This document shows positions 4,137 to 59,847 of a DNA stretch of 59,847 nt, in pieces. The stretch covers positions 1 to 59,847 of the IMG/VR virus record IMGVR_UViG_3300045117_000178. One strand, written 5' to 3'. A program made the position numbers and the translations under genes. The stretch comes from a virus. Taxonomy: Duplodnaviria; Caudoviricetes. Numbering within the stretch: the stretch's first letter is position 1; each line of letters opens with the position of its first letter. The notes beneath the pieces were generated by a model. That model was not told the origin of the DNA and did no database searches. It saw only the letters and a program-made list of their open reading frames with translations.

Positions 4137-4163
4137 CTTATACCAACGTGGGCGTGAAGATTC
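4137..4163 (-). promoter_or_regulatory. ATAAG-class promoter motif
   Basis: GAA-N19-ATAAG 36 nt upstream of the 4101 start. Confidence 0.55.
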
Positions 4164-7306: not shown

Positions 7307-7478
7307 GTTCCTCCTCCATCAGCTCCGCGACCCGGAGCAGTCGATGATACTTCGTGTAGAGATCGGTCACCAGCCAGTACAACGTCGGATCTTGATTGCC
7401 GCGTGTACGAATGAACAACTCCTCGAACCGACTGTTGGTGGCCGGCTGATGGACCTCCAAGAACTTCTTGAGCTTCAC
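7113..7478 (-). CDS. Hypothetical protein (3' half overlaps next gene)
   Basis: GTGA-coupled start fills the 7306-7475 gap; long overlap lowers confidence. Confidence 0.4.
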   Translation of the reverse strand: MKLKKFLEVHQPATNSRFEELFIRTRGNQDPTLYWLVTDLYTKYHRLLRVAELMEEEHDQGEGEGPVRGRGRQEEEEGGGARAREEAREGAPGAAQGRAHAGREGREEGGGQEGGGDLGSG

Positions 7479-7987
7479 TTCCCGACGATCCGATGCAGAG
7501 AGTTGTCGTCCGTCGCGAGCTTGCGTTGGATGCTGGCGACGGTCTCCAGCAAGCCGTACACGTAGTTCTCGAGCTTGGCCGCGGCCGGACGCTCGAACCT
7601 CTCAGCCATCTCGAACAGCTTGCTGAACGGCACGAGATGCCGACAGGCCGCATGGCACTCGAGGATGGGCCTCTGGACCTCCAGCAGGTGCACGATGTAT
7701 CCCATCTCCTCGGCCTGGGTCTTGAACCACTTGTACTCCCACTGCTGGGTGTTGGTGTTGTCCACGATGATCAGGTCGGCGTCGTTCTCGATGAACTGGG
7801 TGAAGCGGTCGTGCGTCCACTGCACGGCCTCGTTGATGCGCTCCTTGTCGAACTTGTACGGCTGACCGTCCCTGGTCCAGAAGTCGTCCATCGAGACGAT
7901 GAACGCCTCGGCCTTGTCCCTGAAGAGCTTGGCCACCGTGCTCTTGCCCGAACCCGGCAGTCCCCTCATGATGATCACAGTCCTCAT
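7475..7987 (-). CDS. P-loop kinase, AAA_33/polynucleotide-kinase (N4BP2-like)
   Basis: MRGLPGSGKST, SMDDF, IIVDNTN..WE motifs; AAGGAG RBS. Confidence 0.85.
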   Translation of the reverse strand: MRTVIIMRGLPGSGKSTVAKLFRDKAEAFIVSMDDFWTRDGQPYKFDKERINEAVQWTHDRFTQFIENDADLIIVDNTNTQQWEYKWFKTQAEEMGYIVHLLEVQRPILECHAACRHLVPFSKLFEMAERFERPAAAKLENYVYGLLETVASIQRKLATDDNSLHRIVGK

Positions 7988-8184
7988 AGCACACTCCTTG
8001 GCGCTGGTCTCCAGTTGTTGCTGATGTGGACCGACGACAGCGACCACTCACCGTGAGCGCGGTCCTCTTCCACCTTGGCTACGGCCACCTCGATCGCCTC
8101 CCTGAAGAGCGCTGCGTCCGGCCGGTTGTCCTTGGTGTCCATCTCGACGTCGATGTTCACCGACATCTGGAGCCTGGCGATCAC
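7984..8184 (-). CDS. Small hypothetical protein
   Basis: GTGA overlap with upstream stop, GAGG RBS. Confidence 0.45.
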   Translation of the reverse strand: MIARLQMSVNIDVEMDTKDNRPDAALFREAIEVAVAKVEEDRAHGEWSLSSVHISNNWRPAPRSVL

Positions 8185-14312: not shown

Positions 14313-14339
14313 AAAAATGATTCGGGGGTGTGGTATAAG
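14313..14339 (+). promoter_or_regulatory. ATAAG-class promoter motif
   Basis: AAAAA-N17-ATAAG. Confidence 0.7.
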
Positions 14340-15249: not shown

Positions 15250-15720
15250 TCACCTTGCGGACGCGTGCAACGAGCTCATCTCCGGAAATGGGCTTCTCGT
15301 GACCTGCTTGTGGTCGAGCACGACGTACTCTTCGATCTCTGCGAGGTTTGCTATCCGCAGTTCCTTCTTCCCCTTGAACTCCTCCGCGTTCCACACCTCC
15401 GGGCACCCGCCCGTCTGCCGGCAGTGATCCGGTATCAGATACCCCGATGTGTGCATCCACCCCGTCAGGCCGTCGTTCGATGCCCAGAACTCCAGGACGC
15501 TCTTCAGCGGGGCAAGGAGCACGAATCTCCACTCCTTGAAAGGGACACCATGGATCGCTGGCCCCGGAGGGCTCATCCTGTAAGACTTCTTCCACTGGCT
15601 GATCGACTGCTCCCACCACTCCCTCGTCGCCTGGCGATCTTCGTTGTATTGCACACATGTGATCCGCTCTCCAGACGCCGGCAGGACCTGGAAGGACCTC
15701 CTCCTGATCCCGTGGCTCAC
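15250..15720 (-). CDS. Hypothetical protein
   Basis: 156 aa, GTGA-coupled to tmk. Confidence 0.6.
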   Translation of the reverse strand: MSHGIRRRSFQVLPASGERITCVQYNEDRQATREWWEQSISQWKKSYRMSPPGPAIHGVPFKEWRFVLLAPLKSVLEFWASNDGLTGWMHTSGYLIPDHCRQTGGCPEVWNAEEFKGKKELRIANLAEIEEYVVLDHKQVTRSPFPEMSSLHASAR

Positions 15721-16385
15721 GGGTGCCTCTGACGGATGATTCGCAGCATGTCGGCCACGACATCAGCCGGCTGGGTATTGATCGTGCTGATGTGGTAGAT
15801 CTCCTCCGCCCCCACCGTCGGGATCACCTTCCCACCGGTCTCCATCGGCGCGTAGATGCCACCTGACTTGCCGATGAAGTAAGAAGGACGGCTGAAGCGC
15901 GAGTAGCGCTCGGCATACCTCTCCTGCAGCTCGTTGGAGTCGTACCGCTCCTTCACGTCTCTCTTCTTCATGCGCTCGGCTGCGATCTCCGGCGGACAGG
16001 TGAGGATGAAGACGTAGTTCGGTGCCAAGATCTTGCGGTGCATGAACTCGATGATCTCAGCCGGGTAGTTGTCCTGCTGGTAGACCCAGGTGCTGGGATA
16101 GTAGCGGTCGCACACGACCGTCTCCCCCTGCTCCAGGTGCGGGCGAATGAAGTTGCTGATGTGGTCCCAGCGGTCGGCAAGGAACAGGGGGAACATGCCG
16201 GCTTCGTCCGCGAGCTCCTCACCCTTGAGGATCTTGCGGATGTGGCGGCCAATGATGCCGTCGCTGGGCTCCTTGGTCCAGACCGCCTGGATGGCGGCCT
16301 CGTTCAGGACCTGGACCAGGCCCTTGGAAGCGGTGGTCGTACCGACACCATCCGCCCCATCGATCACGATGAACAGTGGGTCCAT
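15717..16385 (-). CDS. tmk: Thymidylate kinase
   Basis: FIVIDGADGVGTTT, TKEP, LFLADR..H, VVCDRY..ST.VYQ. Confidence 0.92.
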   Translation of the reverse strand: MDPLFIVIDGADGVGTTTASKGLVQVLNEAAIQAVWTKEPSDGIIGRHIRKILKGEELADEAGMFPLFLADRWDHISNFIRPHLEQGETVVCDRYYPSTWVYQQDNYPAEIIEFMHRKILAPNYVFILTCPPEIAAERMKKRDVKERYDSNELQERYAERYSRFSRPSYFIGKSGGIYAPMETGGKVIPTVGAEEIYHISTINTQPADVVADMLRIIRQRHP

Positions 16386-16400
16386 TGTTCTCCTCTAAGA

Positions 16401-16922
16401 TCAGAGACCGAGGTCTTGGGCCGACGGCCTCTTGAACGTGCTGGAAGGGAGAGGACTGGTGATGTCCTTGGCTCCCAACGGAGGGGTGACGACCTGTGTC
16501 TTCGCCGGGGCAGGGGCCGCCTGCCTGCCGGTCCCGGCAGTCGGTGGTGCAGCCGCTCGAGCGGACCCGGTTGCGGCCGCCATCTGCGACTGGGTGGCTG
16601 GGGCGCGCTGAACTTGTTGGGTGGCTGGGGCCGGTGCGTTGGCCCGATTGCGGGCAGCTATCATGCCTACCTGTGTTCTGGCCCCGCCGGCAGCCGCACC
16701 GGGCCCGAGAGTCGTACGGCTGATCTGCTGTGCGGCTTGAGCCATCGAGGACTGCCCCGCAGGGGCCGGGGCCGGAACCCCTGCCCCGCGGGACACTGGT
16801 GGCATCTTCGGCGCGGTGGCCGTTGAAGGTGGAGGTTTCGAAGGTGCTGATGGAGCCGGAACGCCGGTAACAGCGATCTTCTCCAACTCATCGAAGAATG
16901 CTGACAGGACTCTGATGTGCAT
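16401..16922 (-). CDS. Pro/Ala-rich protein with AFFDELEKIA tag (putative internal virion protein)
   Basis: N-terminal SAFFDELEKIA; rest low complexity. Confidence 0.7.
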   Translation of the reverse strand: MHIRVLSAFFDELEKIAVTGVPAPSAPSKPPPSTATAPKMPPVSRGAGVPAPAPAGQSSMAQAAQQISRTTLGPGAAAGGARTQVGMIAARNRANAPAPATQQVQRAPATQSQMAAATGSARAAAPPTAGTGRQAAPAPAKTQVVTPPLGAKDITSPLPSSTFKRPSAQDLGL

Positions 16923-16927
16923 GCCCG

Positions 16928-16957
16928 ATTCTAGCGCCTGCTAGTGGCTGGTGACAA
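16928..16957 (-). promoter_or_regulatory. sigma70-like promoter, leaderless
   Basis: TTGTCA-N18-TAGAAT-N5-ATG. Confidence 0.6.
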
Positions 16958-17300
16958 GCGCGATACTTGCGTGATCTTCATCGTCAGTCTGCCAAGGGAG
17001 CTCGATCTTGGCCTCGAATTTGTTGGCTCCCTCGCTCGACCAGGATCTGAGCTTGTCGCCGATGGGGCCTGAGAACTCGACTGTGAGCGCCCGCAATCTG
17101 ATGGTGTGGTCGCAGGCTTCGATGACCATGCGAAGGTGCTGGAGATCTTCGAACATCACGTGCAGGAGTCCGTCCCCGTCCACGATCCAATCGATGGCGT
17201 CAGGACGACCCGATCGGATGTGCGCCAAGAAGTTCTCCATGCGCGACCGCTGATCAGCGGTCATGGGCTCGAAGTGCAGCTCCCACGTGCTGACGACCAT
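16941..17300 (-). CDS. Hypothetical protein
   Basis: TGATG-coupled to histone gene. Confidence 0.7.
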   Translation of the reverse strand: MVVSTWELHFEPMTADQRSRMENFLAHIRSGRPDAIDWIVDGDGLLHVMFEDLQHLRMVIEACDHTIRLRALTVEFSGPIGDKLRSWSSEGANKFEAKIELPWQTDDEDHASIALVTSH

Positions 17301-17509
17301 CAGACGTCGTTGGGGCCGACGGTCTTGCCACCGCGGCCCTGGGCGCGGTCGACCGCGCGCTTGACCAGGATGCAGACCTGCTCGCTGAGCGCCTCCGGGA
17401 AGTCGCCCCCCATGCGGAAGCCTTCGCCCCCGATCTCCTGGACGTACTCCTTGACCTTGCTGGTGACGACCAGCATCGGGAGCTCCTTGACTACCTTCTT
17501 CTCTGGCAT
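17300..17509 (-). CDS. Bacterial histone-fold protein (Bd0055-like)
   Basis: LVVTSKVKEYV...DFPEALSEQV..LVKRAVDRA...GKTV...DV; 69 aa; GGAGG RBS. Confidence 0.85.
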   Translation of the reverse strand: MPEKKVVKELPMLVVTSKVKEYVQEIGGEGFRMGGDFPEALSEQVCILVKRAVDRAQGRGGKTVGPNDV

Positions 17510-17549
17510 CGTGATCCTCCTGTGAAGTTACGGTCTACCAACTGAGGAC

Positions 17550-17575
17550 CTTATACCATCGATCAATGATTGTTT
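17550..17575 (-). promoter_or_regulatory. ATAAG-class promoter motif
   Basis: AAA-N18-ATAAG upstream of histone. Confidence 0.65.
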
Positions 17576-17679
17576 GCCAGCCGGCCGCTTCGCGGCCGCC
17601 GGCTGCCGGAGGGTGGACCAAGCTGGGTTCGCGGATGGGTCTAGATTCCTACTCTATAATTCCTCTTCTTCCTTTTTTC

Positions 17680-17721
17680 TTCTTCTACATAGGGCCTATT
17701 CATAAGCCCTATGTAGAAGAA
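17680..17721. repeat. 16-bp perfect inverted repeat in AT-rich intergenic region
   Basis: TTCTTCTACATAGGGC-N10-GCCCTATGTAGAAGAA. Confidence 0.85.
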
Positions 17722-17772
17722 AAGAACGACCACACATTATACAAGACCTCAGACCTCCCCACCTCAGGGACG

Positions 17773-17797
17773 ACCTGGGCCGGGAACCGGCCCAGGT
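17773..17797. repeat. 11-bp perfect inverted repeat
   Basis: ACCTGGGCCGG-GAA-CCGGCCCAGGT. Confidence 0.8.
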
Positions 17798-17800
17798 AAC

Positions 17801-17827
17801 AAAACCACAAGGCTTTCTTGGGATAAG
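17801..17827 (+). promoter_or_regulatory. ATAAG-class promoter motif
   Basis: AAAA-N18-ATAAG with CTTTCTTGGG spacer. Confidence 0.75.
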
Positions 17828-17853
17828 ATCAGTAACTGGGAAAGGAGCTTTTC

Positions 17854-18129
17854 ATGACCAAGGAGAAGGCGAAGCCCAAGCCCAGGGCGAAGCCGAAGTC
17901 CAAGCCGAAGAAGAAGGCCGAGCCCAAGAAGGCCGAGCCCAAGCCCGTGGCGGGGCGGGTCGACGTCTACCACCACTATCCGCAGCCCGCGCCGCCCACG
18001 GTCGCGCCGCCCACGCCGCCCGCCCCGAAGGAGGAGATCACGGCGGGCGGGGTGGTGGCGGAGGTGGTCGGGTTCGGGGCCCTCATCGGGCTCACGATCC
18101 TCATCGGCCGCGCTATCGCCGGCCGATGA
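17854..18129 (+). CDS. Lys/Pro-rich protein with C-terminal TM helix
   Basis: GAAAGGAG RBS; hydrophobic Gly-rich C-terminus. Confidence 0.75.
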   Translation: MTKEKAKPKPRAKPKSKPKKKAEPKKAEPKPVAGRVDVYHHYPQPAPPTVAPPTPPAPKEEITAGGVVAEVVGFGALIGLTILIGRAIAGR

Positions 18130-18159
18130 AAGCTGGGAACCCCTCCCCCGGCGGGTGGG

Positions 18160-18193
18160 CCGCCGGTCGAAAGACTGGCGGTTCATCTTAGCT
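18160..18193 (+). terminator. Hairpin + TTAGCT terminator
   Basis: CCGCCGGTC-GAAA-GACTGGCGG then TTCATCTTAGCT. Confidence 0.75.
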
Positions 18194-18199
18194 TGATAG

Positions 18200-18225
18200 A
18201 AAATCGTGGTCGATTCAGTGATAAG
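18200..18225 (+). promoter_or_regulatory. ATAAG-class promoter motif
   Basis: AAAA-N17-ATAAG. Confidence 0.7.
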
Positions 18226-18259
18226 ATCACGTCAACTCACCAGTTACCCAGGAGGCGGC

Positions 18260-18940
18260 ATGGGCCATTTGCTCTACTGCGAAGGGATCATTGGAGCCGG
18301 CAAGTCCGAGTACTGCAAGCAGATAGCCAAGCGCTTGAGCCTGCGTCTGATCAAGGAGCCGATGGAGGACAACCCGTACATCGACCTCTTCTACCAGGAC
18401 CCGAAGAGGTGGGCGTACGAGATGCAGATCTACCTCCTGCACCGGCGCATCGGGCTCCAGCAGCTGGCCGCGGCCGAGGCGCTCTACAGCGCCGAGTACC
18501 GCGGAGCCATCATCGACCGGTCGCTGTTCGGAGACGCCAACTTCGAGGAGCTCCACCACGAGGTCGGCAACATCAGCGACCTCCAACACCACGCCTACCT
18601 GACAGCCATCCGCAACATGAAGCTCATGATCTTCCCACCCACGGTACTCGTGTTCCTGGATGTCGAGCCGAAGGTCGCGCTCGAGCGCATTCGGGAGCGG
18701 GCGCGCGGGTGTGAGGTCAACATCAAGATCGAGTACCTGGAACAGCTCACGCGCAAGTACCACAGCATGATCCAGGGCGCGAAGACCGGGCACTACCCGT
18801 TCTCGCACGCGGTCTCCGTCCTCTACGTGCCCTGGAACCACAACACCAGGACAGACCCCGAGTGGGACTCGGCGGCTGCCAGCCTTCAGCGGTTCCTGGA
18901 AGAGACGCGAGCTGGACTCACGCCAGAGTGGCGTCTATGA
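18260..18940 (+). CDS. Deoxynucleoside kinase
   Basis: EGIIGAGKS, EP..DNPY...FY.DP.RW, DRS, RI.ERAR..E; AGGAGG RBS. Confidence 0.92.
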   Translation: MGHLLYCEGIIGAGKSEYCKQIAKRLSLRLIKEPMEDNPYIDLFYQDPKRWAYEMQIYLLHRRIGLQQLAAAEALYSAEYRGAIIDRSLFGDANFEELHHEVGNISDLQHHAYLTAIRNMKLMIFPPTVLVFLDVEPKVALERIRERARGCEVNIKIEYLEQLTRKYHSMIQGAKTGHYPFSHAVSVLYVPWNHNTRTDPEWDSAAASLQRFLEETRAGLTPEWRL

Positions 18941-19041
18941 CCGATCTCAAAGTACTGGCCATCCGCGCGGCGATCGTTTTCATATCCGTGTTCGTCGTGT
19001 ACTTCGTCTACTACCTCATCAAGCGCCCGCCAAATGACTGA
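18937..19041 (+). CDS. 34-aa single-TM peptide (not in ORF track)
   Basis: ATGA overlap; MTDLKVLAIRAAIVFISVFVVYFVYYLIKRPPND. Confidence 0.55.
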   Translation: MTDLKVLAIRAAIVFISVFVVYFVYYLIKRPPND

Positions 19042-19058
19042 CCCCTTCCAGGTATAAG
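19032..19058 (+). promoter_or_regulatory. ATAAG-class promoter motif
   Basis: AAA-N19-ATAAG. Confidence 0.7.
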
Positions 19059-19084
19059 GATCATAACCTGGAAAGGAGGACATT

Positions 19085-19273
19085 GTGCCTCGTAGTCACG
19101 TCGTTGTCGAACTGACGATGACGGACGTGAAGTCCGTCACGACCGACGACAACGCCGGAGAGGAGGTCGCGGTCATCAACGGCGCGACCTTCAACCTCAC
19201 GATCCCGCGCCAGGTCATCGAGGATCTGGCGCGACGGTTCCAGGAGAACGACCGCCTGCGAAGGCGGTCCTAG
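19085..19273 (+). CDS. Small hypothetical protein
   Basis: GAAAGGAGG RBS, GTG start. Confidence 0.75.
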   Translation: MPRSHVVVELTMTDVKSVTTDDNAGEEVAVINGATFNLTIPRQVIEDLARRFQENDRLRRRS

Positions 19274-19282
19274 TCCCACGGC

Positions 19283-19321
19283 GAGACGGCCGCCATCCCA
19301 TCAGCCGTCGTCTCATTAGCT
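19283..19321 (+). terminator. Hairpin + TTAGCT terminator
   Basis: GAGACGGC...GTCGTCTC then ATTAGCT. Confidence 0.65.
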
Positions 19322-19388: not shown

Positions 19389-20387
19389 ATGCGTTCGATG
19401 CCGAAGAGGTCAACGGTGGAGAGCAGCCAAACCACCAACACCAGATCAGACACCAAGATCGTCACGCCGAAGATGGTAGGAAGCTGGGAAGCACCACCTT
19501 TCCAGAGACCAGTGCAGACCAGCAAGAAGGTCCTGGCACTGGTGGAGCAACTGAAGGCGACCGGTAGGCTGGAGGACAGCGCCATAGTGCTCGGAGAATG
19601 GGAGGGCAGGACCTATATCGTCGACGGGCAGCATCGGCTGAGGGCTTTCATGCTGTCAGAGCTCGAGCGGATGTCAGCGCAGGTCACTGTCCACAATTAC
19701 GAGAAAGGCCCCGCCGGGCTGAGAGCCATGCACGAGACGTACATCCATCTCAACAGCCACCTGGCGCGGCACAGGCCCGACGATCTGCTGCGAGCCATGG
19801 AGGGTGTCAACGTTCATCTGCACCAGATAAAGAGCGCCTGCAAGTTCACCGGATTCGATTACATCAGGCGCGGCCCCACCTCCCCCATCCTGTCGATGTC
19901 GACCGCCATCCGATCGTGGATGAGCAGCGCGTCCGACGTCCCCGGAGGTTGTAGCAAGGGGGCGATGGACATGGTGATGGATCTCACCGACACCGAGACG
20001 AAGAGCCTGATCGATTTCCTCAGCCTTGCCCATGAGGCATGGGGGGACGGGGTAGAGAACAAGCCCTTGTGGGCCGGCCTCAATCTCATCCTCTGCATGT
20101 GGCTCTATCGCAACACGGTCCTTGCTCCGCCGCCGGACAACCCCAAGAAGAAGAACCTCACCAGGGCCCAGTTCTTGAAGGGCTTGTTCGCGTTGGCAGC
20201 GGACAAGAAGTACATGAACTGGATCTTCGGACGTAGTGGGAAGGTGAACGAAGATACGCGCAACCCCGCCTATCGGGAGCTGTTGAGAACGATCAAGAAC
20301 AGAATGAACGCGGAGGGTATCAAGAACTTCCACCTCCCCTGCCCCGACTGGTACAAGGTCACGCAGGGGCGACGCCCCATCCCCTAG
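19389..20387 (+). CDS. ParB/Srx-like (DGQHR) domain protein
   Basis: FQRP...IVLG...YIVDGQHRL.A. Confidence 0.75.
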   Translation: MRSMPKRSTVESSQTTNTRSDTKIVTPKMVGSWEAPPFQRPVQTSKKVLALVEQLKATGRLEDSAIVLGEWEGRTYIVDGQHRLRAFMLSELERMSAQVTVHNYEKGPAGLRAMHETYIHLNSHLARHRPDDLLRAMEGVNVHLHQIKSACKFTGFDYIRRGPTSPILSMSTAIRSWMSSASDVPGGCSKGAMDMVMDLTDTETKSLIDFLSLAHEAWGDGVENKPLWAGLNLILCMWLYRNTVLAPPPDNPKKKNLTRAQFLKGLFALAADKKYMNWIFGRSGKVNEDTRNPAYRELLRTIKNRMNAEGIKNFHLPCPDWYKVTQGRRPIP

Positions 20388-20987: not shown

Positions 20988-21260
20988 ATGCGACGCTTCT
21001 ATCTGTACCGAAGCGTGGACGTCACTGTGGTATCGGGCACCGGCGTGATCGCGGAGGGTATCGAGTTCACCAATGGGTGGGTGGTACTGCGTTGGATCAG
21101 CTCAACTCCCAGTGTGATCTTCTACACGGATGTGGCCGACATGTTGAAGGTCCACGGTCACCATGGATTGACGACCATTCAGTGGGTAGATCGGGAGACA
21201 AAAACGGATAGCGTGAAAAGGTATAAGAACCATGACAGAGGACGGGAAACCGTGCTCTGA
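20988..21260 (+). CDS. Conserved phage hypothetical protein
   Basis: RRF.L.R..DV...SGTG..AEG.EF..G..V.RW...HGH pattern familiar from phage proteins. Confidence 0.75.
   Translation: MRRFYLYRSVDVTVVSGTGVIAEGIEFTNGWVVLRWISSTPSVIFYTDVADMLKVHGHHGLTTIQWVDRETKTDSVKRYKNHDRGRETVL
21200..21227 (+). promoter_or_regulatory. ATAAG-class promoter motif
   Basis: AAAAA-N18-ATAAG. Confidence 0.65.
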
Positions 21261-21377: not shown

Positions 21378-21596
21378 ATGGGCCACCGACTGAGACTGGA
21401 ACGGCGCAAACGACGAGTGCCGACCTCGTTCGTTCTGACGGCAGAGCAGCTCGCGTTCCTGCAGCAGAAGGCGAAGGAGAGCAGCGACCGATTGCACAAG
21501 CGGGTCCACGCCAGCCACATCGTGCGCGCTCTGATTCGGCGCGCGATGGACGAGGACCAGGAGAAGGGCAAGGTCTGGTATGACGAAGATCTCTAA
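21378..21596 (+). CDS. Ribbon-helix-helix-like DNA-binding protein
   Basis: TSFVLT..QL.FL...A...S.IVRALI; GGAGG RBS. Confidence 0.65.
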   Translation: MGHRLRLERRKRRVPTSFVLTAEQLAFLQQKAKESSDRLHKRVHASHIVRALIRRAMDEDQEKGKVWYDEDL

Positions 21597-47578: not shown

Positions 47579-47614
47579 GCTCCCTGGGTTCTCCAGGTCG
47601 AGTCTTCATTAGCT
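47578..47614 (+). terminator. Hairpin + TTAGCT terminator
   Basis: GGCTC-CCTGG-loop-CCAGG-TC-GAGTC then TTCATTAGCT. Confidence 0.55.
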
Positions 47615-49463
47615 AGCGCTTGCGCTTGGGGCGGAAGTCCTCGCCCGAGTCCTTCAGCGGCGCGATGATGTCCGGACGTGGGTACTTGATCATGGATGCC
47701 AGGAAGCAGTACACGATCGAGTGGAAGGTGTCGTCCGTGGTGCCGGGCGAGTGATTGTAGATCGTCATGCGCAGCTGCTTGCTGTACTCGCTGAAGATGT
47801 TGAGGATGTCTTGTCCGTAGGGCTCGAAGAAGTCATCCCAGTTCGGCAGCGCGATCTGCTTGCGGATCATCGCGTTGAACACGTCGCTCATGACCTCTGT
47901 GCGGTGGCACATGAACCGACGTAGCTGCGGCTGCCAGAAGATCTTGCCCTTCTTCTGGTTGGGGTTGTACTGGTACTTGAGCACCTTCTGCGGCCCGAAC
48001 GCGCGGACAAGGTGGTCATTGCGATCGAAGCCACCGCCGTAGTCGCAGCCGGTGATCTGGACGTTGTACCGCGCGAGGATGTTGCAGATGCGGTCGAGCT
48101 GCCGCACAGGCTCCAGGTCCTCACCCACGAAACGGTGTACCCAGAAGACGGTGAAGGCACCAGTCCCGAAGTACGTGCCCAGAGAGATCACGGTGTACGC
48201 ATTCTCTCCCGTCCCCCAGTCGATGCCGGCGAAGATGTCCTGGGTGTGACCGAACTTCATGTAGTACTCGAAGTCGCTGATCCGAATGTCCTCCTTGCAG
48301 CACGCCTTCAGCTGACCTCGAGTGATGGGACGAGTACCGCTGTCGTAGGAGAGGCCGAGGACCTCGTTGTTGAACTTCTGCCTCGGGTAGCGCTTCTGTT
48401 TCTCGAGCAGCCCCTTCCAGCCGTCAGGCGTCTTGACCACCCATGGCACCAGCAGCTGGCTGATGTGGTAGCCCTCGAACGTCACCTTCTCCTTGTTGCT
48501 GTCGGTCGCGGGATTCATCGCAGACCACACAGCGTCAGGGTGGTAGATTTCGATCGGCTGGTGGCAACGGTCGCAGATCAGTCCCTCGGCCCCGATGTTG
48601 TCCTCACCCAAGATGTTCCAATGCCAGGTGCTCTTGTCGCCGGGCACACCATGGTGCTCACAGGGGACGACCCACTCGTTCTGCGTGGAGAAGTTCGCCC
48701 AGTAGTACTCGATGGTGTTGTCTAGGCTCTTGGGCGTGCCGGAGTAGATGAAGATCTTCCAGTCGCTGTGGCTGGCGCACTCCTCGATGACGGGGATGTT
48801 GTCGACCAGGATGTCCTGGATCTCGTCGATGTCTATCAGATCCGTGGGGATACCGCGGACGCGGTCGGCCGTGAGGTAGGCGTAGCGAAGACGGATCTGA
48901 GAGTAGTTGATGAACTTCTTGTGGAAGACCGCATTCGTGAGCTTGGTGTTGGTGTACGCCTGAACGACCGGGCTCATGCTGATCGGGTCAGCGAGACGAT
49001 CGTTGGAGAACACCTTGGTCTGCTCGGCCGAGGGGCTGACGTACAGGCTCTTGAAGTAGTTGATGAGGCAGCTGTAGGCGAGCAGCTTGTTGCCGAGCGT
49101 CGTGCTCTTCTCGACCTGGCGGCCGGCCTTCAGCAGCGTCTTCTTCTCACCCGTGTCGTAGACTCGGCGGAGGTACGGGCGCTCTGCGAACGAGAAGTTG
49201 TCGACCTTGCCCTTGTCCGCAATGCGAATGGCGGTCTCTGAGAACTCGGACGGGGAGACGTTGTAGACGTAGTCGATCTTGGCTTCCGACTCGTCGACGT
49301 CTTCTGGCTCTTCATCGAAGCCGTAGTCCCTGGGCTCACCCTCTTCATCGAGATCGTAGAACGGCTCAGTGTAGATCTTGCCGTCCACAAGCTGCTGTGC
49401 GAGAGCGATCGGAACATCGATCTCTGCGCGGCGTGCTCGAACTCGACGAAGGTCAACAAGCAA
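47613..49463 (-). CDS. Terminase large subunit (lambda GpA-like)
   Basis: KAGRQVEKST Walker A, IDIDEIQD Walker B, SGTPK, C..H/CDRC Zn site, AGIDWG nuclease, DDTFH; start uncertain. Confidence 0.9.
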   Translation of the reverse strand: MLVDLRRVRARRAEIDVPIALAQQLVDGKIYTEPFYDLDEEGEPRDYGFDEEPEDVDESEAKIDYVYNVSPSEFSETAIRIADKGKVDNFSFAERPYLRRVYDTGEKKTLLKAGRQVEKSTTLGNKLLAYSCLINYFKSLYVSPSAEQTKVFSNDRLADPISMSPVVQAYTNTKLTNAVFHKKFINYSQIRLRYAYLTADRVRGIPTDLIDIDEIQDILVDNIPVIEECASHSDWKIFIYSGTPKSLDNTIEYYWANFSTQNEWVVPCEHHGVPGDKSTWHWNILGEDNIGAEGLICDRCHQPIEIYHPDAVWSAMNPATDSNKEKVTFEGYHISQLLVPWVVKTPDGWKGLLEKQKRYPRQKFNNEVLGLSYDSGTRPITRGQLKACCKEDIRISDFEYYMKFGHTQDIFAGIDWGTGENAYTVISLGTYFGTGAFTVFWVHRFVGEDLEPVRQLDRICNILARYNVQITGCDYGGGFDRNDHLVRAFGPQKVLKYQYNPNQKKGKIFWQPQLRRFMCHRTEVMSDVFNAMIRKQIALPNWDDFFEPYGQDILNIFSEYSKQLRMTIYNHSPGTTDDTFHSIVYCFLASMIKYPRPDIIAPLKDSGEDFRPKRKR

Positions 49464-55188: not shown

Positions 55189-58100
55189 CTAGTGCGGGTG
55201 CTTCAATCCGAACTCTGCCCCGTGAGCGATCCCCGGTATCGGATGAGTCCCGTGGATGTTTGTTCCCCATCCTTTGTTGGCAGCCTCGATGATCGTTTCG
55301 TGCAAGCGCTCGTGGTTCAATCTTGCCATCCAGTCAGTCTGGATGTCGAGTGGCAGTTTCTGCACGCCTTTGAGGACCGGCGCGTGTTGAATCGGCCGTA
55401 GTCTCTCGGCATTGAGCCGCTTGTTGACGGCTTGGATCTGGGAGGTCGGGGCGAAATCGCCACGCAGGAACTCCTTGTTGTCCCCAGGTTCCTCAACACG
55501 GGTCAGGTTCGTCATGCTCTTGACGATGGTCTCGATGTTACGGCGACGGATGCCCTCGCTCTTGTAGAGATCGTAGAGCTGACTGGAGAGGTAGCCCTGG
55601 ACCTTGCTCAGACCAGCCAACGGCAGGAGCTCGTGGGGGTTGATGGGGCCGTGTGACACTGGGTCTCCCTTCTGCACGGCCATGCCCACGGACAGCTTCT
55701 TGGGCTTGTCACCGACGAAGACGATGGGCTCCCCTCGATCCTGGGGAACGTAGTGGCGCACGCCTTCGACGAAGACGTTCGTTCCTCCAGCCGGGTCCTT
55801 CGAGATCTTCGTGACCTTGCCTTCCATCGTGCTCAGGGTGGCCGACTTTGGGATCTTCTCGTAGAGCTGTACCAGCTGCTTCACGCGGTTGAACTGGTCG
55901 GTCAGCTGAGCTCGTGCCTTGGCCGCCTCTCCCACAGGCGCGATGCCGCCCTCATGGAAGGTCCGCATGGACAGCTGAGTCGCTCGCTCACCGATGGATT
56001 GGGCGCTGATGACCCCGACGTTCTTGCCGATGGCAGGGTGCTGTCCGTTCTCGTCCAAGCCGTAGCACTTGGCGCAGATCCCAGTCCCGTGCTCACACCG
56101 CAGAGGCGATCTCACAATGATCTTGCCGATGCGCGCCTTGTTGTTGCGCAGGCTATCTCGAACCTCCGGCGTGATGAGAGTGCCGGCTGGGAACGTCTTC
56201 TTGCCGATCTTGACATCGACCGCCAGGTGGCGGTCGAGGATGTCCTTCTCCTCTACGGGCAGCGAGATGCCCTTCTTCGTACCACAATCGTGGACTCCGA
56301 CGATGTTGTTGATCACGGAGTTCATGACCTGCTTGGTGAGATAGCCGGGCTCTTCAACCGACTGTACCTTCTGGATGACGCCCTTCCTGGCCCCGGACAT
56401 CGAGGTCCAGTAGTCTCCGGTGTCCAGGCCCTCGGAGTAGGACTTCCTGACGGGCGACGGGATCACCTCACCTTTGGCATTCATGATCAACATGGGAGCC
56501 ATGGTGATCTGCCTGTAGGCGTCGATGCTGGGTTTCACGCCGGCCTTCATCATGTTGAATAGGGCAGTCGGCTTCTTCGAGTGCTGGGTGTCGACGACGT
56601 GCAACATCGCTTGCGTCGCGCCGTCGTAGACCTGGACGACCTTCTTCTCCTTGTCCACCTGCTTGCCGGGCCCCTTCATGATCTCGGCGACCTTGGCATC
56701 AGCCATCCTCAAGATCTTGTCTCTCGTGACTTTGTCGGCCCGCAGATCGTCCAGTCCGAGAGAGAGCGCCTTGTTTGTGGCGAACTGGTTGCCCAGGTCC
56801 TTGAGCTTGTTCGAGACCACACCGAAGTCGTTCTTGTGCTCTTTGGCCACGACCGTCAGGAGTGCTGCCTGTCCCTTGCCATCGAGAACGAAGGTTGGAT
56901 CCAGCACCTTCTTCCGAAGAGGCTCCGGCAGGACTTCAGCAATGAGAGCTCTGCCAACCGTCGTTCTGCCCTGCCCGATCTTCACCTCGTGATTGAAGTT
57001 GATCTTCCCCTGGTGCGCGGCCTGCGCGGCAGTTGCTAGGTCCTTGAAGGACTCATTGGAACGCCCGGTGACCTGTGCCAGCGTGAAGAGGCCCAGCTGG
57101 CTCTCGTGCGTGGGTCGGTACATGATCGAACCGCTGGCAGGGCTGAAGAGATTGCGCGAAGGGAGCATGTCGTACGCTTCCTTCACGGCCTGGGTGGTCA
57201 ACGGGACGAACGCGCTCATGGTGTCGCCGTCGAAGTCGGCATTGTAGCCGGACGTCACCAGCGGGTGGATCTTGATGGCTTTGCCACTGATGAGCACGGG
57301 CTTGAACGCTTGCACGCCGTAGCGATGCAGCACGGGGTCGCGCTTCATCAGCAGCGGTCGGTTGTCGACCACGCGCTCGAGAGCCCTGGAAGCAAGGGGG
57401 TCGTTGTTCTTGATGGCCAGCTGCGCCTGGAGCGGCGTCATGTCTGCCAGGCCGCGCAGCTCACGCACCACGAACGGCTTGTAGATCTCCATGGCCGCCG
57501 TCCGCGGGATGCCGACCTGGTCCAGCCCGAGCTCGGGCTCTGGGATGATGGTCGAGCGCATGCTGAGGTCCTGCTTGCGCTTGATCAGTTTCTCCTGGAA
57601 GAACCCCTCCTTCGGCTTGCCCTCCTTCTCTCCCTCCTTCACGCGCTTTCCACGGATGATGTCGAGCACGCCACGGAACTTCTGGTTGAGGTGGCCGCCG
57701 AGACCGGCAAGCGACCGCATGCCGTCGTAGATGGCCGACCGTCGGTCATCCTTCATGTGGTCGGGCAGAAGTGGACTGGCCTCGTTCATCTTCTTCACGA
57801 GCAGGCCGACGCCCTTGTACATGTGGTTGAGGTCGTCCTCGTTCAGGCTTCCGTTGGGCATGACCGACACCGGGCGTAGAGCCGGTGGGATCACCGGGAT
57901 GTGCTGCTGCATGTAGGCTTCATGCGGCGTCATCCCGAGGTTGCTCAGGACCGACAGATACTTGACCTTCTTGTTCGTGGCATCGAGCTTCGGACCCTTC
58001 AACGCGGGGTCAGCTAGGCGGGCCTGAGCCGCCCTCAGCTCTTTCTGCACGTCGATCTTGCCCAATAGGTGGGAGATCGCCAGGCCGCTGCGCAGGCCTT

Positions 58101-59847
58101 CCTCGGGCTTGACGAACGCGCCGGTCTTCGGGTGGATGGCCTTCTCACCCGACATGACGGCGTCGAAGTCCTTCTGTTTGAGCCCCGTGAGGCTGGTGAT
58201 GGCCTTCTCGAAGATCGGGTTCGGCATGGGCTCGGGCAGCTTGATGTGGGCCCACTTCGTGCCGTCGACACCACCAGTCACCTTCGGGTCGAACAGGCCG
58301 TGCTCTTCCGGCTTCAGGTTCTTCCCGATCACCATCCGTCCGGGGTCCTTGATCGCGCCGTTGCTCATCTCCAGGACGTTCTTGTCCGTGAGCGGCATGA
58401 GGTTGATGGTGTTGCCCTGCTTGACGGCGTTCACTCCGATGGCTTTGAGGTAGCCCAGGAACTTGTTGTAGGCGAACGACGGTTTGGGAGGAGGAATCGG
58501 ATCTCCGGCCTGGATGGCAGACCACAGTTCGTCGTTGGTCTCGGCGTTGCTCTTGTAGGTCTGCATCTCGCGGATGTTGGCTTTCGCCCCGTGCGCCAAC
58601 ATCGCGTACAGGCCCAGTGCGTCGATCGCTTGCGCTCCGTGGGGACCACCACCTTTCGGGATGTGGTTCACGTCGTAGGAGTAGCCGGGACCACCGGCAC
58701 GTGCGACCAGCTTCTTCTCCACCTGGTGCTTGAGCTTGTGAATGTAGTGCGGCCCGACCAGAGCCTCTCCCATAGGCTTGCCGGAGGTCGGGTCGAACAG
58801 CAGCTCCTTGTCTGACAGACCGTGGGCCTTGAGGTCTTTCTGCACGCGATCAAGCCAGTCCTCGGTGCCGTCGAAGTTCTGGATCTGGTAGGGCTTGCCC
58901 GTCTTCTCGGCGATCTTGGCGGCCGCGGTCTCCAGCACCTGGCCAAGGTTGAGACGGCCGGGGATGCCGGCAGGGTTCAGCGCGATGTCGATGTGACGTC
59001 CGTCCGAAGTCTTCGGCATCTCGTGATCGGGCACGATGCGGGTGATGATGCCCTTGTTCCCATGCCGTCCGGTGATCTTGTCACCGATCTCCGCCGCCTC
59101 GTTCGTACGGACGTGGACCTCGACACGCCCACCGTGCTTGACAATGTTCGTGACAATGCCCGGATGATCGGCTTCCCACCGGATGGACGCATCGCTGTAC
59201 GGCTGCACGAGCGACTTGTGCATGCGCGACAGCATCCTCGACTCGTCGTCAGTGATGTCCTTCTTCTTCAAGGCCGCAACGAGGAGGTCGCCCGGCTTGA
59301 TCTCCGTTCCGGGCTTGATCACGCCGTCCTCGTCCAGCTTGTCCATGTGCCCCTTCGTGATCGTGCTTCCGAAGTAGGAGGCGAACTTCTTCCGGTCCTG
59401 CACGTGGTCCGGGCTGAGATCGAGACCCTTCCGGTACATGTGCTCGGACGTCAGTTTGCGCGAGGCGCTGTCGCTGATGACGACGCCGTCCTCGAAGTTG
59501 TACCCATGGAACGGGACGAAGCCGGCGCGCAGGTTGGTGCCCAGAGCCAGACTACCGTTGCGAGTGAAGTTGGTGTCTGCCACCACCTGGTTCTCACGCA
59601 CGCGATCGCCAGGCTTCACAAGCGGCGCGCTGTGCATGAAGCTCTTCTCATCGTTGAGCGGGAAGTGTTCGTACAGCTGCATCTCATGCTTCTTGCCATC
59701 ATCTCCCTGGATGTGGATGTGATCTTTGCCGACCTTCAGCACCTCGCCGGACACCGGAGCTAGATGAGAGCTGCTGCGTCCGATGAGCTCGTTCAGAGTC
59801 GCGGCCGTGGGGGGGGGAAACCGCGTGTGGGAGGGGGGGACATCCCC
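55189..59847 (-). CDS. Phage multisubunit RNA polymerase, beta/beta' fusion (5' truncated)
   Basis: beta: GYNFEDG, GDKITGRHGNKG, NPAGIPGRLNLGQ, KLKH; beta': PVIPP.LRP, RDPVLHR, YNADFDGD, GARKG, AQSIGE..TQLSMRTFH; frame stays open upstream of 59754. Confidence 0.95.
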   Translation of the reverse strand, partial: GDVPPSHTRFPPPTAATLNELIGRSSSHLAPVSGEVLKVGKDHIHIQGDDGKKHEMQLYEHFPLNDEKSFMHSAPLVKPGDRVRENQVVADTNFTRNGSLALGTNLRAGFVPFHGYNFEDGVVISDSASRKLTSEHMYRKGLDLSPDHVQDRKKFASYFGSTITKGHMDKLDEDGVIKPGTEIKPGDLLVAALKKKDITDDESRMLSRMHKSLVQPYSDASIRWEADHPGIVTNIVKHGGRVEVHVRTNEAAEIGDKITGRHGNKGIITRIVPDHEMPKTSDGRHIDIALNPAGIPGRLNLGQVLETAAAKIAEKTGKPYQIQNFDGTEDWLDRVQKDLKAHGLSDKELLFDPTSGKPMGEALVGPHYIHKLKHQVEKKLVARAGGPGYSYDVNHIPKGGGPHGAQAIDALGLYAMLAHGAKANIREMQTYKSNAETNDELWSAIQAGDPIPPPKPSFAYNKFLGYLKAIGVNAVKQGNTINLMPLTDKNVLEMSNGAIKDPGRMVIGKNLKPEEHGLFDPKVTGGVDGTKWAHIKLPEPMPNPIFEKAITSLTGLKQKDFDAVMSGEKAIHPKTGAFVKPEEGLRSGLAISHLLGKIDVQKELRAAQARLADPALKGPKLDATNKKVKYLSVLSNLGMTPHEAYMQQHIPVIPPALRPVSVMPNGSLNEDDLNHMYKGVGLLVKKMNEASPLLPDHMKDDRRSAIYDGMRSLAGLGGHLNQKFRGVLDIIRGKRVKEGEKEGKPKEGFFQEKLIKRKQDLSMRSTIIPEPELGLDQVGIPRTAAMEIYKPFVVRELRGLADMTPLQAQLAIKNNDPLASRALERVVDNRPLLMKRDPVLHRYGVQAFKPVLISGKAIKIHPLVTSGYNADFDGDTMSAFVPLTTQAVKEAYDMLPSRNLFSPASGSIMYRPTHESQLGLFTLAQVTGRSNESFKDLATAAQAAHQGKINFNHEVKIGQGRTTVGRALIAEVLPEPLRKKVLDPTFVLDGKGQAALLTVVAKEHKNDFGVVSNKLKDLGNQFATNKALSLGLDDLRADKVTRDKILRMADAKVAEIMKGPGKQVDKEKKVVQVYDGATQAMLHVVDTQHSKKPTALFNMMKAGVKPSIDAYRQITMAPMLIMNAKGEVIPSPVRKSYSEGLDTGDYWTSMSGARKGVIQKVQSVEEPGYLTKQVMNSVINNIVGVHDCGTKKGISLPVEEKDILDRHLAVDVKIGKKTFPAGTLITPEVRDSLRNNKARIGKIIVRSPLRCEHGTGICAKCYGLDENGQHPAIGKNVGVISAQSIGERATQLSMRTFHEGGIAPVGEAAKARAQLTDQFNRVKQLVQLYEKIPKSATLSTMEGKVTKISKDPAGGTNVFVEGVRHYVPQDRGEPIVFVGDKPKKLSVGMAVQKGDPVSHGPINPHELLPLAGLSKVQGYLSSQLYDLYKSEGIRRRNIETIVKSMTNLTRVEEPGDNKEFLRGDFAPTSQIQAVNKRLNAERLRPIQHAPVLKGVQKLPLDIQTDWMARLNHERLHETIIEAANKGWGTNIHGTHPIPGIAHGAEFGLKHPH

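Follow-up and report, generated by a model that had tools for sequence, protein, structure and literature searches.

The viral record IMGVR_UViG_3300045117_000178, a linear sequence of 59,847 bp that we analyzed over its full length and refer to as the window, carries on its minus strand a gene (17300..17509, stop codon included) for a 69-residue protein, P0001. By its predicted structure, P0001 is a genuine histone fold with a truncated third helix (alpha3). On sequence and model together it is better called a face-to-face (FtF) type histone than a histone of the Bd0055 type, the pattern to which an initial annotation, made from the DNA alone, had matched it. The best explanation as a whole is that P0001 is a tetrameric FtF-type histone with which the phage supplies a nucleoid-associated protein of its own for its replicating DNA, and we give this explanation an even chance of being right.

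The minus-strand frame at 17300..17509 is a real translated gene. Its ATG lies at 17509, and a Shine-Dalgarno sequence, AGGAGG (17516..17521, minus strand), stands 6 nt before it; the same element precedes the homologous gene of L002, a syntenic metagenome contig whose product is 73% identical to P0001. Across 68 aligned codons of this pair, 29 are identical, 21 differ synonymously only and 18 differ non-synonymously, and the differences at codon positions 1, 2 and 3 number 13, 10 and 28. This pattern indicates a coding sequence under purifying selection. The G+C content at third codon positions (GC3) is 0.93, which ranks among the highest in the window. We also considered a plus-strand open reading frame (ORF) at 17106-17525 (139 aa, GC3 0.81), which a GC3-greedy gene picker favors over the histone frame, and rejected it as an antisense shadow lying over the histone gene and the next gene, ORF119. 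Shadow frames of this kind are typical of GC-rich DNA and would mislead gene callers that rely on composition.

The translated protein can be divided into a lysine-bearing N-terminal tail (residues 1-11), helix alpha1 (16-27), the L1 region (28-36), helix alpha2 (37-58), L2 (59-65) and a one-turn alpha3 (66-68). The initial annotation had described a 69-residue protein with several histone-like strings, and every one of these is present: L13-V-V-T-S-K-V-K20, A40-L-S42 and K62-T-V-G-P-N-D-V69. It had also pointed out that the canonical R-K-T reads G-K-T here, which is correct: the triplet is G61-K62-T63, and G61 occupies the position where relatives carry the arginine. The most conserved motif of histones is thus present in P0001 in an unusual form.

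Searches with the single sequence and with profiles connect P0001 to solved prokaryotic histones, well above what chance would give. Against PDB sequences, phmmer matched it to HTkC (9F2C) at 2e-6, HLp (9QT0) at 2.2e-4 and HBb, also known as Bd0055 (8CMP, 8FVX), at 0.029. The protein had no match in a PHROGs scan, and tblastn against 50,697 GenBank phage records returned nothing at E<=1. A word-index search found only four close relatives, which together with P0001 form a five-sequence clade alignment. The profile of this alignment, run against 1.84 billion representative proteins, matched 345 at E<=1e-3, 15 at <=1e-10 and 1 at <=1e-30. With the best 150 of these 345 matches, 154 proteins were collected in all; a larger alignment holds the 117 of them that are <=90 aa long, and leaves out 37 longer proteins (mostly two-fold doublets) and P0005, whose extension looks like a mis-called start. 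Counts out of 117 below refer to this alignment. Its profile matches HLp at 1.8e-22, HTkC at 1.3e-20 and HBb at 4.2e-18 in the PDB, and classical archaeal histones at 4e-6 to 9e-3. Scanned singly at E<=0.01, 28 of the 117 members match the Pfam family CBFD_NFYB_HMF, 13 match DUF1931 and 8 match the core Histone family.

An AlphaFold2 model built on the 117-sequence alignment reached a mean confidence (pLDDT) of 91.2 and a predicted template-modeling score (pTM) of 0.71, with helices at 16-27 and 37-58 (22 residues) and a single turn at 66-68; a poor model from the five-sequence alignment (pLDDT 60.6) was replaced by this run. The initial annotation had named a predicted structure lacking the histone fold as the outcome that would overturn it, and the fold is present. 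All of the first nine Foldseek matches in the PDB are prokaryotic alpha3 histones (chains of HTkC, HLp and HBb), each with probability 1.00, TM scores normalized by target of 0.83-0.94, root-mean-square deviations of 0.9-1.5 A and E-values of 1e-3 to 2e-2, the latter being as expected for 60 residues. By target, the values are 0.93 and 1.0 A for HTkC, 0.94 and 0.9 A for HLp, and TM 0.83-0.86 for HBb. Eukaryotic and archaeal histone-fold proteins follow below rank nine. In the viral structure library BFVD nothing reached E<=1e-3; the best E-values, 8e-3 to 0.1, belonged to viral proteins without a name and to histones of giant viruses. P0001 therefore shows the features by which the alpha3 histone family was defined (Schwab 2024): a cut-down alpha3, a short alpha2 and a significant match to solved members.

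Whether P0001 is of the FtF or the dimer type turns on a few residues at the end of alpha2 and in L2. Schwab et al. report that the FtF tetramer relies on residues R48 and N52 of the family logo, and that dimer-type histones have neither (PMC11390915). For HLp, R49, N53 and R55 are reported as conserved in predicted tetrameric bacterial FtF histones, R55 and D62 form the so-called RD clamp, and tetramer contacts are made by R49, S52, N53, T61 and D62 (PMC12701072). We transferred these positions through the phmmer alignment, the paper's numbering being the chain numbering minus 2: HLp R49 corresponds to R55 of P0001, S52 to G58, N53 to R59, R55 to G61, T61 to N67, D62 to D68 and F63 to V69. 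The FtF arginine at the C-terminal end of alpha2 is thus present as R55; an arginine stands there in 111 of the 117 aligned proteins and is invariant in the five-sequence clade alignment. The full R-N-R signature occurs in 92 of the 117. P0001 scores 78.0 bits on a hidden Markov model (HMM) of these 92 sequences and 59.3 bits on one of six HBb-like sequences without the alpha2 arginine; it belongs to neither training set, and the two models differ greatly in size. When the tree is built without the three signature columns, the closest neighbor from outside the phage clade is an R-N-R protein; with 67 columns and 2 of 114 inner branches starred, this tree has little resolution.

Structure prediction with four copies of P0001 points in the same direction. 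The complex scored 0.88, 0.88 and 0.87 by ipSAE, while the best of three controls scored 0.01; among proteins of solved structure, 20 of 30 pairs of one chain reach the mark applied to this score, as does 1 of 23 single chains. Contacts agree to at least 98% between the runs, and partner pLDDT is at least 87. The scored copy is predicted to form a full handshake dimer with one neighbor and a smaller second interface with another, through residues 54-55, 58-59 and 67-68, and this second interface aligns with the tetramer contacts of HLp. P0001 is therefore predicted to form an FtF homotetramer via the C-terminus of alpha2, L2 and alpha3.

A mechanism can be outlined on this basis. P0001 would pair by the usual antiparallel handshake of alpha2, and two such dimers are predicted to join via the C-terminal end of alpha2, L2 and alpha3, the surface used by HLp and HTkC. 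The tetramer would bind DNA without sequence preference, as HLp does, through the N-terminal end of alpha1 (S17, K18, K20), the L1/L2 bridge (G35, K62, T63) and the short lysine-bearing tail, and could wrap or bridge about 60 bp. Made at a high level alongside nucleotide-salvage and replication functions, it would act on replicating phage DNA by compacting, organizing and possibly protecting it. A functional precedent is TF1 of Bacillus phage SPO1, a phage-encoded HU-type protein that is likewise a small, abundant architectural DNA-binding protein; its HU/IHF fold is unrelated, and the analogy is one of function only. The DNA contacts of HLp lie at A13, S14, K15, K17, K21, T27, G29, T56 and T57 (PMC12701072), which align with T16, S17, K18, K20, Q24, M33, G35, K62 and T63 of P0001; the serine, two lysines, the glycine and a threonine are kept.

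Several observations weigh against this explanation. On its own, P0001 finds only CBFD_NFYB_HMF as its best Pfam family, at E=0.17 and under the cutoff. The FtF asparagine, present in 95 of the 117 aligned proteins, is replaced by R59, and the RxTxxxxD motif is incomplete: in G61-K62-T63...D68 the threonine and the aspartate are kept and the arginine, found at position 61 in 104 of 117, is lost. Of the three residues that tetrameric FtF histones are reported to conserve, two are therefore changed (N53 to R59 and R55 to G61), and with these changes the canonical RD clamp cannot form as it does in HLp, HBb or HMfB. Because the 117-sequence alignment consists mostly of canonical FtF proteins, and complexes of similar proteins (HTkC, HLp) have been solved, the high score of the predicted tetramer may reflect likeness only. 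Two DNA-contact positions of HLp are lost, at Q24 and M33, and the protein is nearly neutral, with an isoelectric point (pI) of 7.86 and 11 lysines and arginines against 10 aspartates and glutamates. As a target, the DNA of the host would fit the sequence as well as that of the phage. CheckV places the completeness of the record at 33%, so that about a third of the genome is in view and other chromatin genes may lie outside it.

The strongest competitor holds that P0001 is a dimeric histone like HBb (Bd0055), bending or sheathing DNA as dimers and never forming an FtF tetramer, which was the assignment of the initial annotation. The start of alpha1, LVVTSKVK, is identical to that of HBb; P0001 has neither the FtF asparagine nor the L2 arginine, two of the three tetramer-interface residues; and the likeness to HBb is still considerable by both the HBb-like HMM (59.3 bits) and Foldseek (TM 0.83-0.86). 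Yet R55, the equivalent of HLp R49, is kept, and bacterial dimers are described as lacking it by Schwab et al. (PMC11390915). Compared with the traits of the dimer type, P0001 reads GKTVGPND rather than RKTxxxD, retains the R48 equivalent and misses only the asparagine. The dimer type is also characterized by having no confident oligomer above the dimer, whereas for P0001 a confident second interface is predicted, at the surface homologous to that of known tetramers and subject to the same caveat of likeness. The sequence neighbors are mostly R-N-R proteins (92 of 117), and P0001 scores better against HTkC (2e-6) and HLp (2e-4) than against HBb (0.029). Bd0055 is thus not the nearest pattern, HMM scores and the tetramer prediction both favoring FtF, and we regard the dimeric reading as unlikely, if with a chance worth keeping in mind. 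The accompanying statement that the Bd0055 pattern "coats DNA" reflects one of two published models of that protein; a later study reports bending (PMC11390915; PMC11317129).

The substitutions at positions 59 and 61 may be linked. The sequence R-G-G-K-T is found in P0001-P0004 and R-G-A-K-T in P0005 and P0006, so that N-G-R has become R-G-G within a small clade. Six of the 117 aligned sequences have arginine at position 59, and all six lack R61; conversely, R59 is absent from all 104 sequences that carry R61. The sixth R59 sequence, P0141, stands outside the clade, and the tree requires two origins of the R59 state. The HBb residue that corresponds to position 59, D49, is salt-bridged to the arginine of the clamp (PMC11317129), which places a side chain at this position within reach of the clamp. 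We therefore hypothesize that the clamp or interface arginine has been relocated two residues upstream and that its function has not been lost. With only two independent events, relocation stands as a hypothesis and not as demonstrated covariation. Among the bacterial histone papers that our literature search covered, the portions of text available contain no report of a relocated RD clamp.

Comparison with solved and catalogued histones places P0001 more precisely. HLp of Leptospira perolatii (9QT0/9QT1/9QT2; PMC12701072) is the best profile match (1.8e-22) and shares the alpha3-truncated fold at TM 0.94, 0.9 A and 34% identity. The L1 region of P0001 is three residues longer, as an alignment gap, and P0001 is encoded by a phage, in an operon with nucleotide kinases; tetramer and wrapping are reported as measured for HLp (PMC12701072) and are predicted for P0001. 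HTkC of Thermococcus kodakarensis (9F2C; PMC11390915) is the best single-sequence match (2e-6) and ranks first in Foldseek (TM 0.93, 37% identity). It shares the short alpha2 and alpha3; unlike P0001, it is a cellular protein of an archaeon, keeps the canonical G-R-K-T and carries no N-terminal tail. HBb of Bdellovibrio bacteriovorus (8CMP, 8FVX, 9EZZ, 9F0E) shares the fold, the LVVTSKVK start of alpha1 and the missing FtF asparagine, but it has no arginine at the C-terminal end of alpha2, keeps the canonical R-K-T with its RD clamp, is a dimer and is matched more weakly (E 0.029).

Viral proteins with an FtF histone fold are already in print, and on sequence features P0001 fits that class. 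Liu et al. 2025 (PMC13681535) mined phage-encoded FtF-like histones from IMG/VR, the source of the present record as well, and predicted them to be tetramers, with a lysine-bearing N-terminal tail of 5-40 aa. P0001 shares the features described there: a Caudoviricetes genome, an FtF-like core and a lysine-bearing tail at residues 1-11 (K4, K5, K8). Beside the tails described in that paper, its own is short and mildly basic, with 11 aa that include three lysines and two glutamates; among the 117 relatives, 58 have tails of 5 aa or more that contain three or more lysines or arginines. The portion of PMC13681535 text available does not mention the R-G-G-K-T variant, and P0001 may already be in the lists of that paper. 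A different group, the "phage histones" of Schwab et al. 2024 (e.g. A0A2E7QIQ9; PMC11390915), is reported to combine a tailed-phage alpha3-type fold with a C-terminal tetramerization helix and to carry no RxTxxxD. We considered membership in this group and rejected it: P0001 ends at residue 69, one residue past alpha3, with no C-terminal helix, and keeps the threonine and the aspartate of the motif.

The histone gene is the first of a leftward operon that continues with ORF119, ORF173, a thymidylate kinase and further ORFs. ORF119 (16941..17300, minus) encodes an acidic protein (pI 4.96) and occupies the same place in L002. Its ATG and the stop codon of the histone gene overlap (TGATG), and translation of the two genes is therefore probably coupled. 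It matched no Pfam or PHROG family, and the Atlas structure rows name no family for the whole protein. ORF173 (16401..16922, minus) encodes an Ala/Pro-rich, low-complexity protein of pI 11.84 that is probably disordered; it has no match in Pfam or PHROG, and its L002 counterpart is 185 aa long. The products of ORF119 and ORF173 are possible partners of the histone. The thymidylate kinase (Tmk; 15717..16385, minus) matches PF02223 at 1.9e-34 and phrog_761. In the opposite direction lie ORF91 (17854..18129, plus; 91 aa, pI 10.21, GC3 0.96) and a deoxynucleoside kinase (dNK; 18206..18940, plus; PF01712 at 7.2e-35), and the order of histone gene, ORF119, ORF173 and Tmk with a divergent dNK is identical in L002. 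ORF91 has a Lys/Pro-rich N-terminal half with KPKP and KKAEPK repeats and a hydrophobic C-terminal helix, and may be a membrane-anchored basic protein.

Histones in other phage contigs have comparable surroundings. Scans of viral contigs with the clade alignment, ORF119 and ORF156 found no relative. A search with a 10-sequence alignment identified two unrelated viral contigs, L008 and L009, with FtF-like histones that have lysine-rich tails. In L008, an ATP-dependent DNA ligase is encoded divergently from the histone gene, with ThyX nearby; the histone gene of L009 lies between a PD-(D/E)XK nuclease and a deoxycytidylate (dCMP) deaminase, followed by AAA_24. All four phage contexts, which represent three lineages, thus place the histone in a replication or nucleotide-metabolism module, and none places it among virion genes.

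Upstream of the histone gene we found a repeated motif with the character of a promoter. The sequence GGTATAAG, which resembles a -10 element, lies at 17550..17557 (minus), 40 nt upstream of the histone ATG. It occurs five times in the window against 0.07 expected, and none of 100 shuffled sequences reached five copies: 4137-4144 (-), 14332-14339 (+), 17550-17557 (-), 19051-19058 (+) and 21220-21227 (+). All of them fall within the first 22 kb and in the non-structural third of the window. Four copies are followed, after 25-40 nt, by a ribosome-binding site and start codon; the copy at 21220 lies inside the ORF at 20988-21260, and from there it is about 150 nt to the start of the next ORF at 21378. 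Four of the five are preceded, at a distance of about 17 nt, by a CAAA-type run. At the histone gene an A-rich element, GGCAAACA (17571..17580, minus), lies about 17 nt upstream of GGTATAAG and is a possible -35-like partner. The 18.4-kb contig L002 has six copies of GGTATAAG, one of them before its histone gene, and the upstream block is conserved there. We take GGTATAAG to represent a promoter-like, phage-specific class of the non-structural region. It may be used early, as the initial annotation supposed for the promoter of the histone gene, or later, and may be read by the polymerase of the host or by that of the phage. A scan for the sigma-70 consensus found no promoter upstream of the histone gene and a single promoter-like site at 16957-16928; it misses GGTATAAG because the last base of the motif is G, not T. 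The same scan detected no terminator after the histone gene. The initial annotation had extended the feature to 17575, and the added interval, 17510-17575, also covers the Shine-Dalgarno site and the promoter-like motif at 17550-17557. A strong Shine-Dalgarno sequence, the first place in the operon and a GC3 of 0.93 together suggest high expression of the histone.

The divergent intergenic region of 344 bp contains palindromes at 17578-17605, 17675-17726 and 17773-17797. The central one (17675..17726) is AT-rich, has 25-nt arms, is unique in the window and has no counterpart in the shorter spacer of L002; its possible roles include those of an operator, an origin and a bidirectional stop. The window contained no tRNA and no Rfam family.

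That the histone is phage-encoded, as the initial annotation held, is borne out by the rest of the record, which is that of a Caudoviricetes phage as judged from its genes. The large terminase subunit (47613-49463, minus) matches phrog_675 at 7.9e-61, and was the only one of nine large ORFs to match in a PHROG scan, the other eight having no match. Its best GenBank matches, at about 30% identity, are Salmonella phage Arash and Vibrio phages D69, D148 and D181, with genomes of about 180-187 kb. An ORF at 55189-59847 (minus), open at the window end and at least 1552 aa long, joins the C-terminal domain of the RNA polymerase beta subunit and beta' domains in one frame, with beta domain 6 at residues 20-356 (E 2.4e-62) and beta' domains 1, 2, 3 and 5 at 616-1425. 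Its best matches are Vibrio phages D69, D148 and D181 (about 32% identity over about 95% of the query) and Salmonella phage Arash. By domain content, this phage protein is an RNA polymerase of the multisubunit kind with beta and beta' fused.

The phage's own polymerase gives some force to a second alternative, in which the host nucleoid is the main target of the histone: early compaction would help to shut off transcription or replication of the host while the multisubunit RNA polymerase keeps transcribing phage DNA. The initial annotation had proposed either remodelling of the host nucleoid or early shielding of the genome. A phage that encodes a beta-beta' polymerase may not depend on host transcription, the histone gene stands first in an operon behind a phage-specific motif confined to the non-structural third of the window, and FtF histones are reported to compact DNA non-specifically (PMC12701072). 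A non-specific binder would, however, also coat phage DNA, and the sequence does not discriminate between the two DNAs. The linked dNK and Tmk fit recycling of host nucleotides, which would remove the supposed target and leave phage DNA as the main substrate. We consider this alternative rather improbable.

An extension of the preferred reading would make the histone, ORF119 and ORF173 a three-gene phage "chromatin cassette" that coats replicating phage DNA, with the R-G-G-K-T variant tuning the tetramer. Such a coat would exclude host nucleases and the host polymerase, yet be read by the phage beta-beta' RNA polymerase. We hold this to be a long shot.

It is also conceivable, at a still lower probability, that P0001, as a modified histone, joins an FtF histone of the host, if there is one, in mixed dimers or tetramers and alters or poisons host chromatin in this way instead of packaging DNA. 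The changes fall exactly at the interface and clamp (R59, G61) while the dimerization core is conserved, cellular FtF-type histones are reported from several bacterial phyla (PMC12701072), and we found FtF-type histones in loci of GC-rich actinobacterial metagenome-assembled genomes (MAGs). A pure poison would not need the DNA-contact residues S17, K18, K20, G35 and T63, which are kept, and the clade as a whole conserves both the substitutions and the remainder of the DNA-binding face. Least probable of all is a virion-internal protein that condenses capsid DNA like the histone doublets of Marseilleviridae, for which virion-packaged nucleosomes are known (PMC11390915): all four phage contexts lie away from head and tail genes, and the histone operon stands apart from the terminase block, which runs from about 22.5 kb to the window end at 59.8 kb, largely on the minus strand.

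The operon region was also found in environmental data. At least half of the sampled words of 15700-19300 occur in 10 lake-water metagenome DNA runs, five of which are possible source runs; no RNA run is listed among the holders of this region. A genome-contig search with the clade alignment identified three loci only, in two archaeal MAGs and one Nitriliruptoraceae MAG. Three cellular loci, L003 1156-1455, L004 1303-1737 and L006 4719-5165 (the last from a Nitriliruptoraceae MAG), encode FtF-like histone cores that are 47-53% identical to P0001. The cores follow long Lys/Ala/Thr-rich, H1-like tails, and synteny is conserved across all three. Relatives in one actinobacterial and two archaeal MAGs do not, as sequences, fix the host of the phage, at whose lineage the initial annotation had thought the histone might hint. 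Actinomycetota are not among the main bacterial holder phyla of FtF histones given in the HLp paper (PMC12701072).

The left arm of the window encodes three P-loop kinases, namely an AAA_33/Zeta-toxin-like kinase (7475-8047, minus) along with Tmk (15717-16385, minus) and dNK (18206-18940, plus), as well as a ParB/GmrSD_N-like protein (19389-20387, plus). These genes may point to heavy nucleotide salvage or to DNA modification; no modification enzyme was found among the window ORFs scanned.

P0001 leaves the picture of the kinds of protein encoded by phages unchanged. Bacterial histones have been recognized only recently, and histones of tailed phages have so far been reported only as a catalogue; our literature search for experimental work on phage alpha3 histones found catalogue papers and the HLp paper only. 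P0001 is a clean candidate for a first test, being small and confidently predicted. Its value as a candidate is increased by an operon context that is conserved in two related lake-water phages and by the presence of a multisubunit RNA polymerase gene in the same phage. As a natural variant at the arginine of the RD clamp, it provides a ready-made test of the role of the clamp in folding, tetramer formation and DNA binding.

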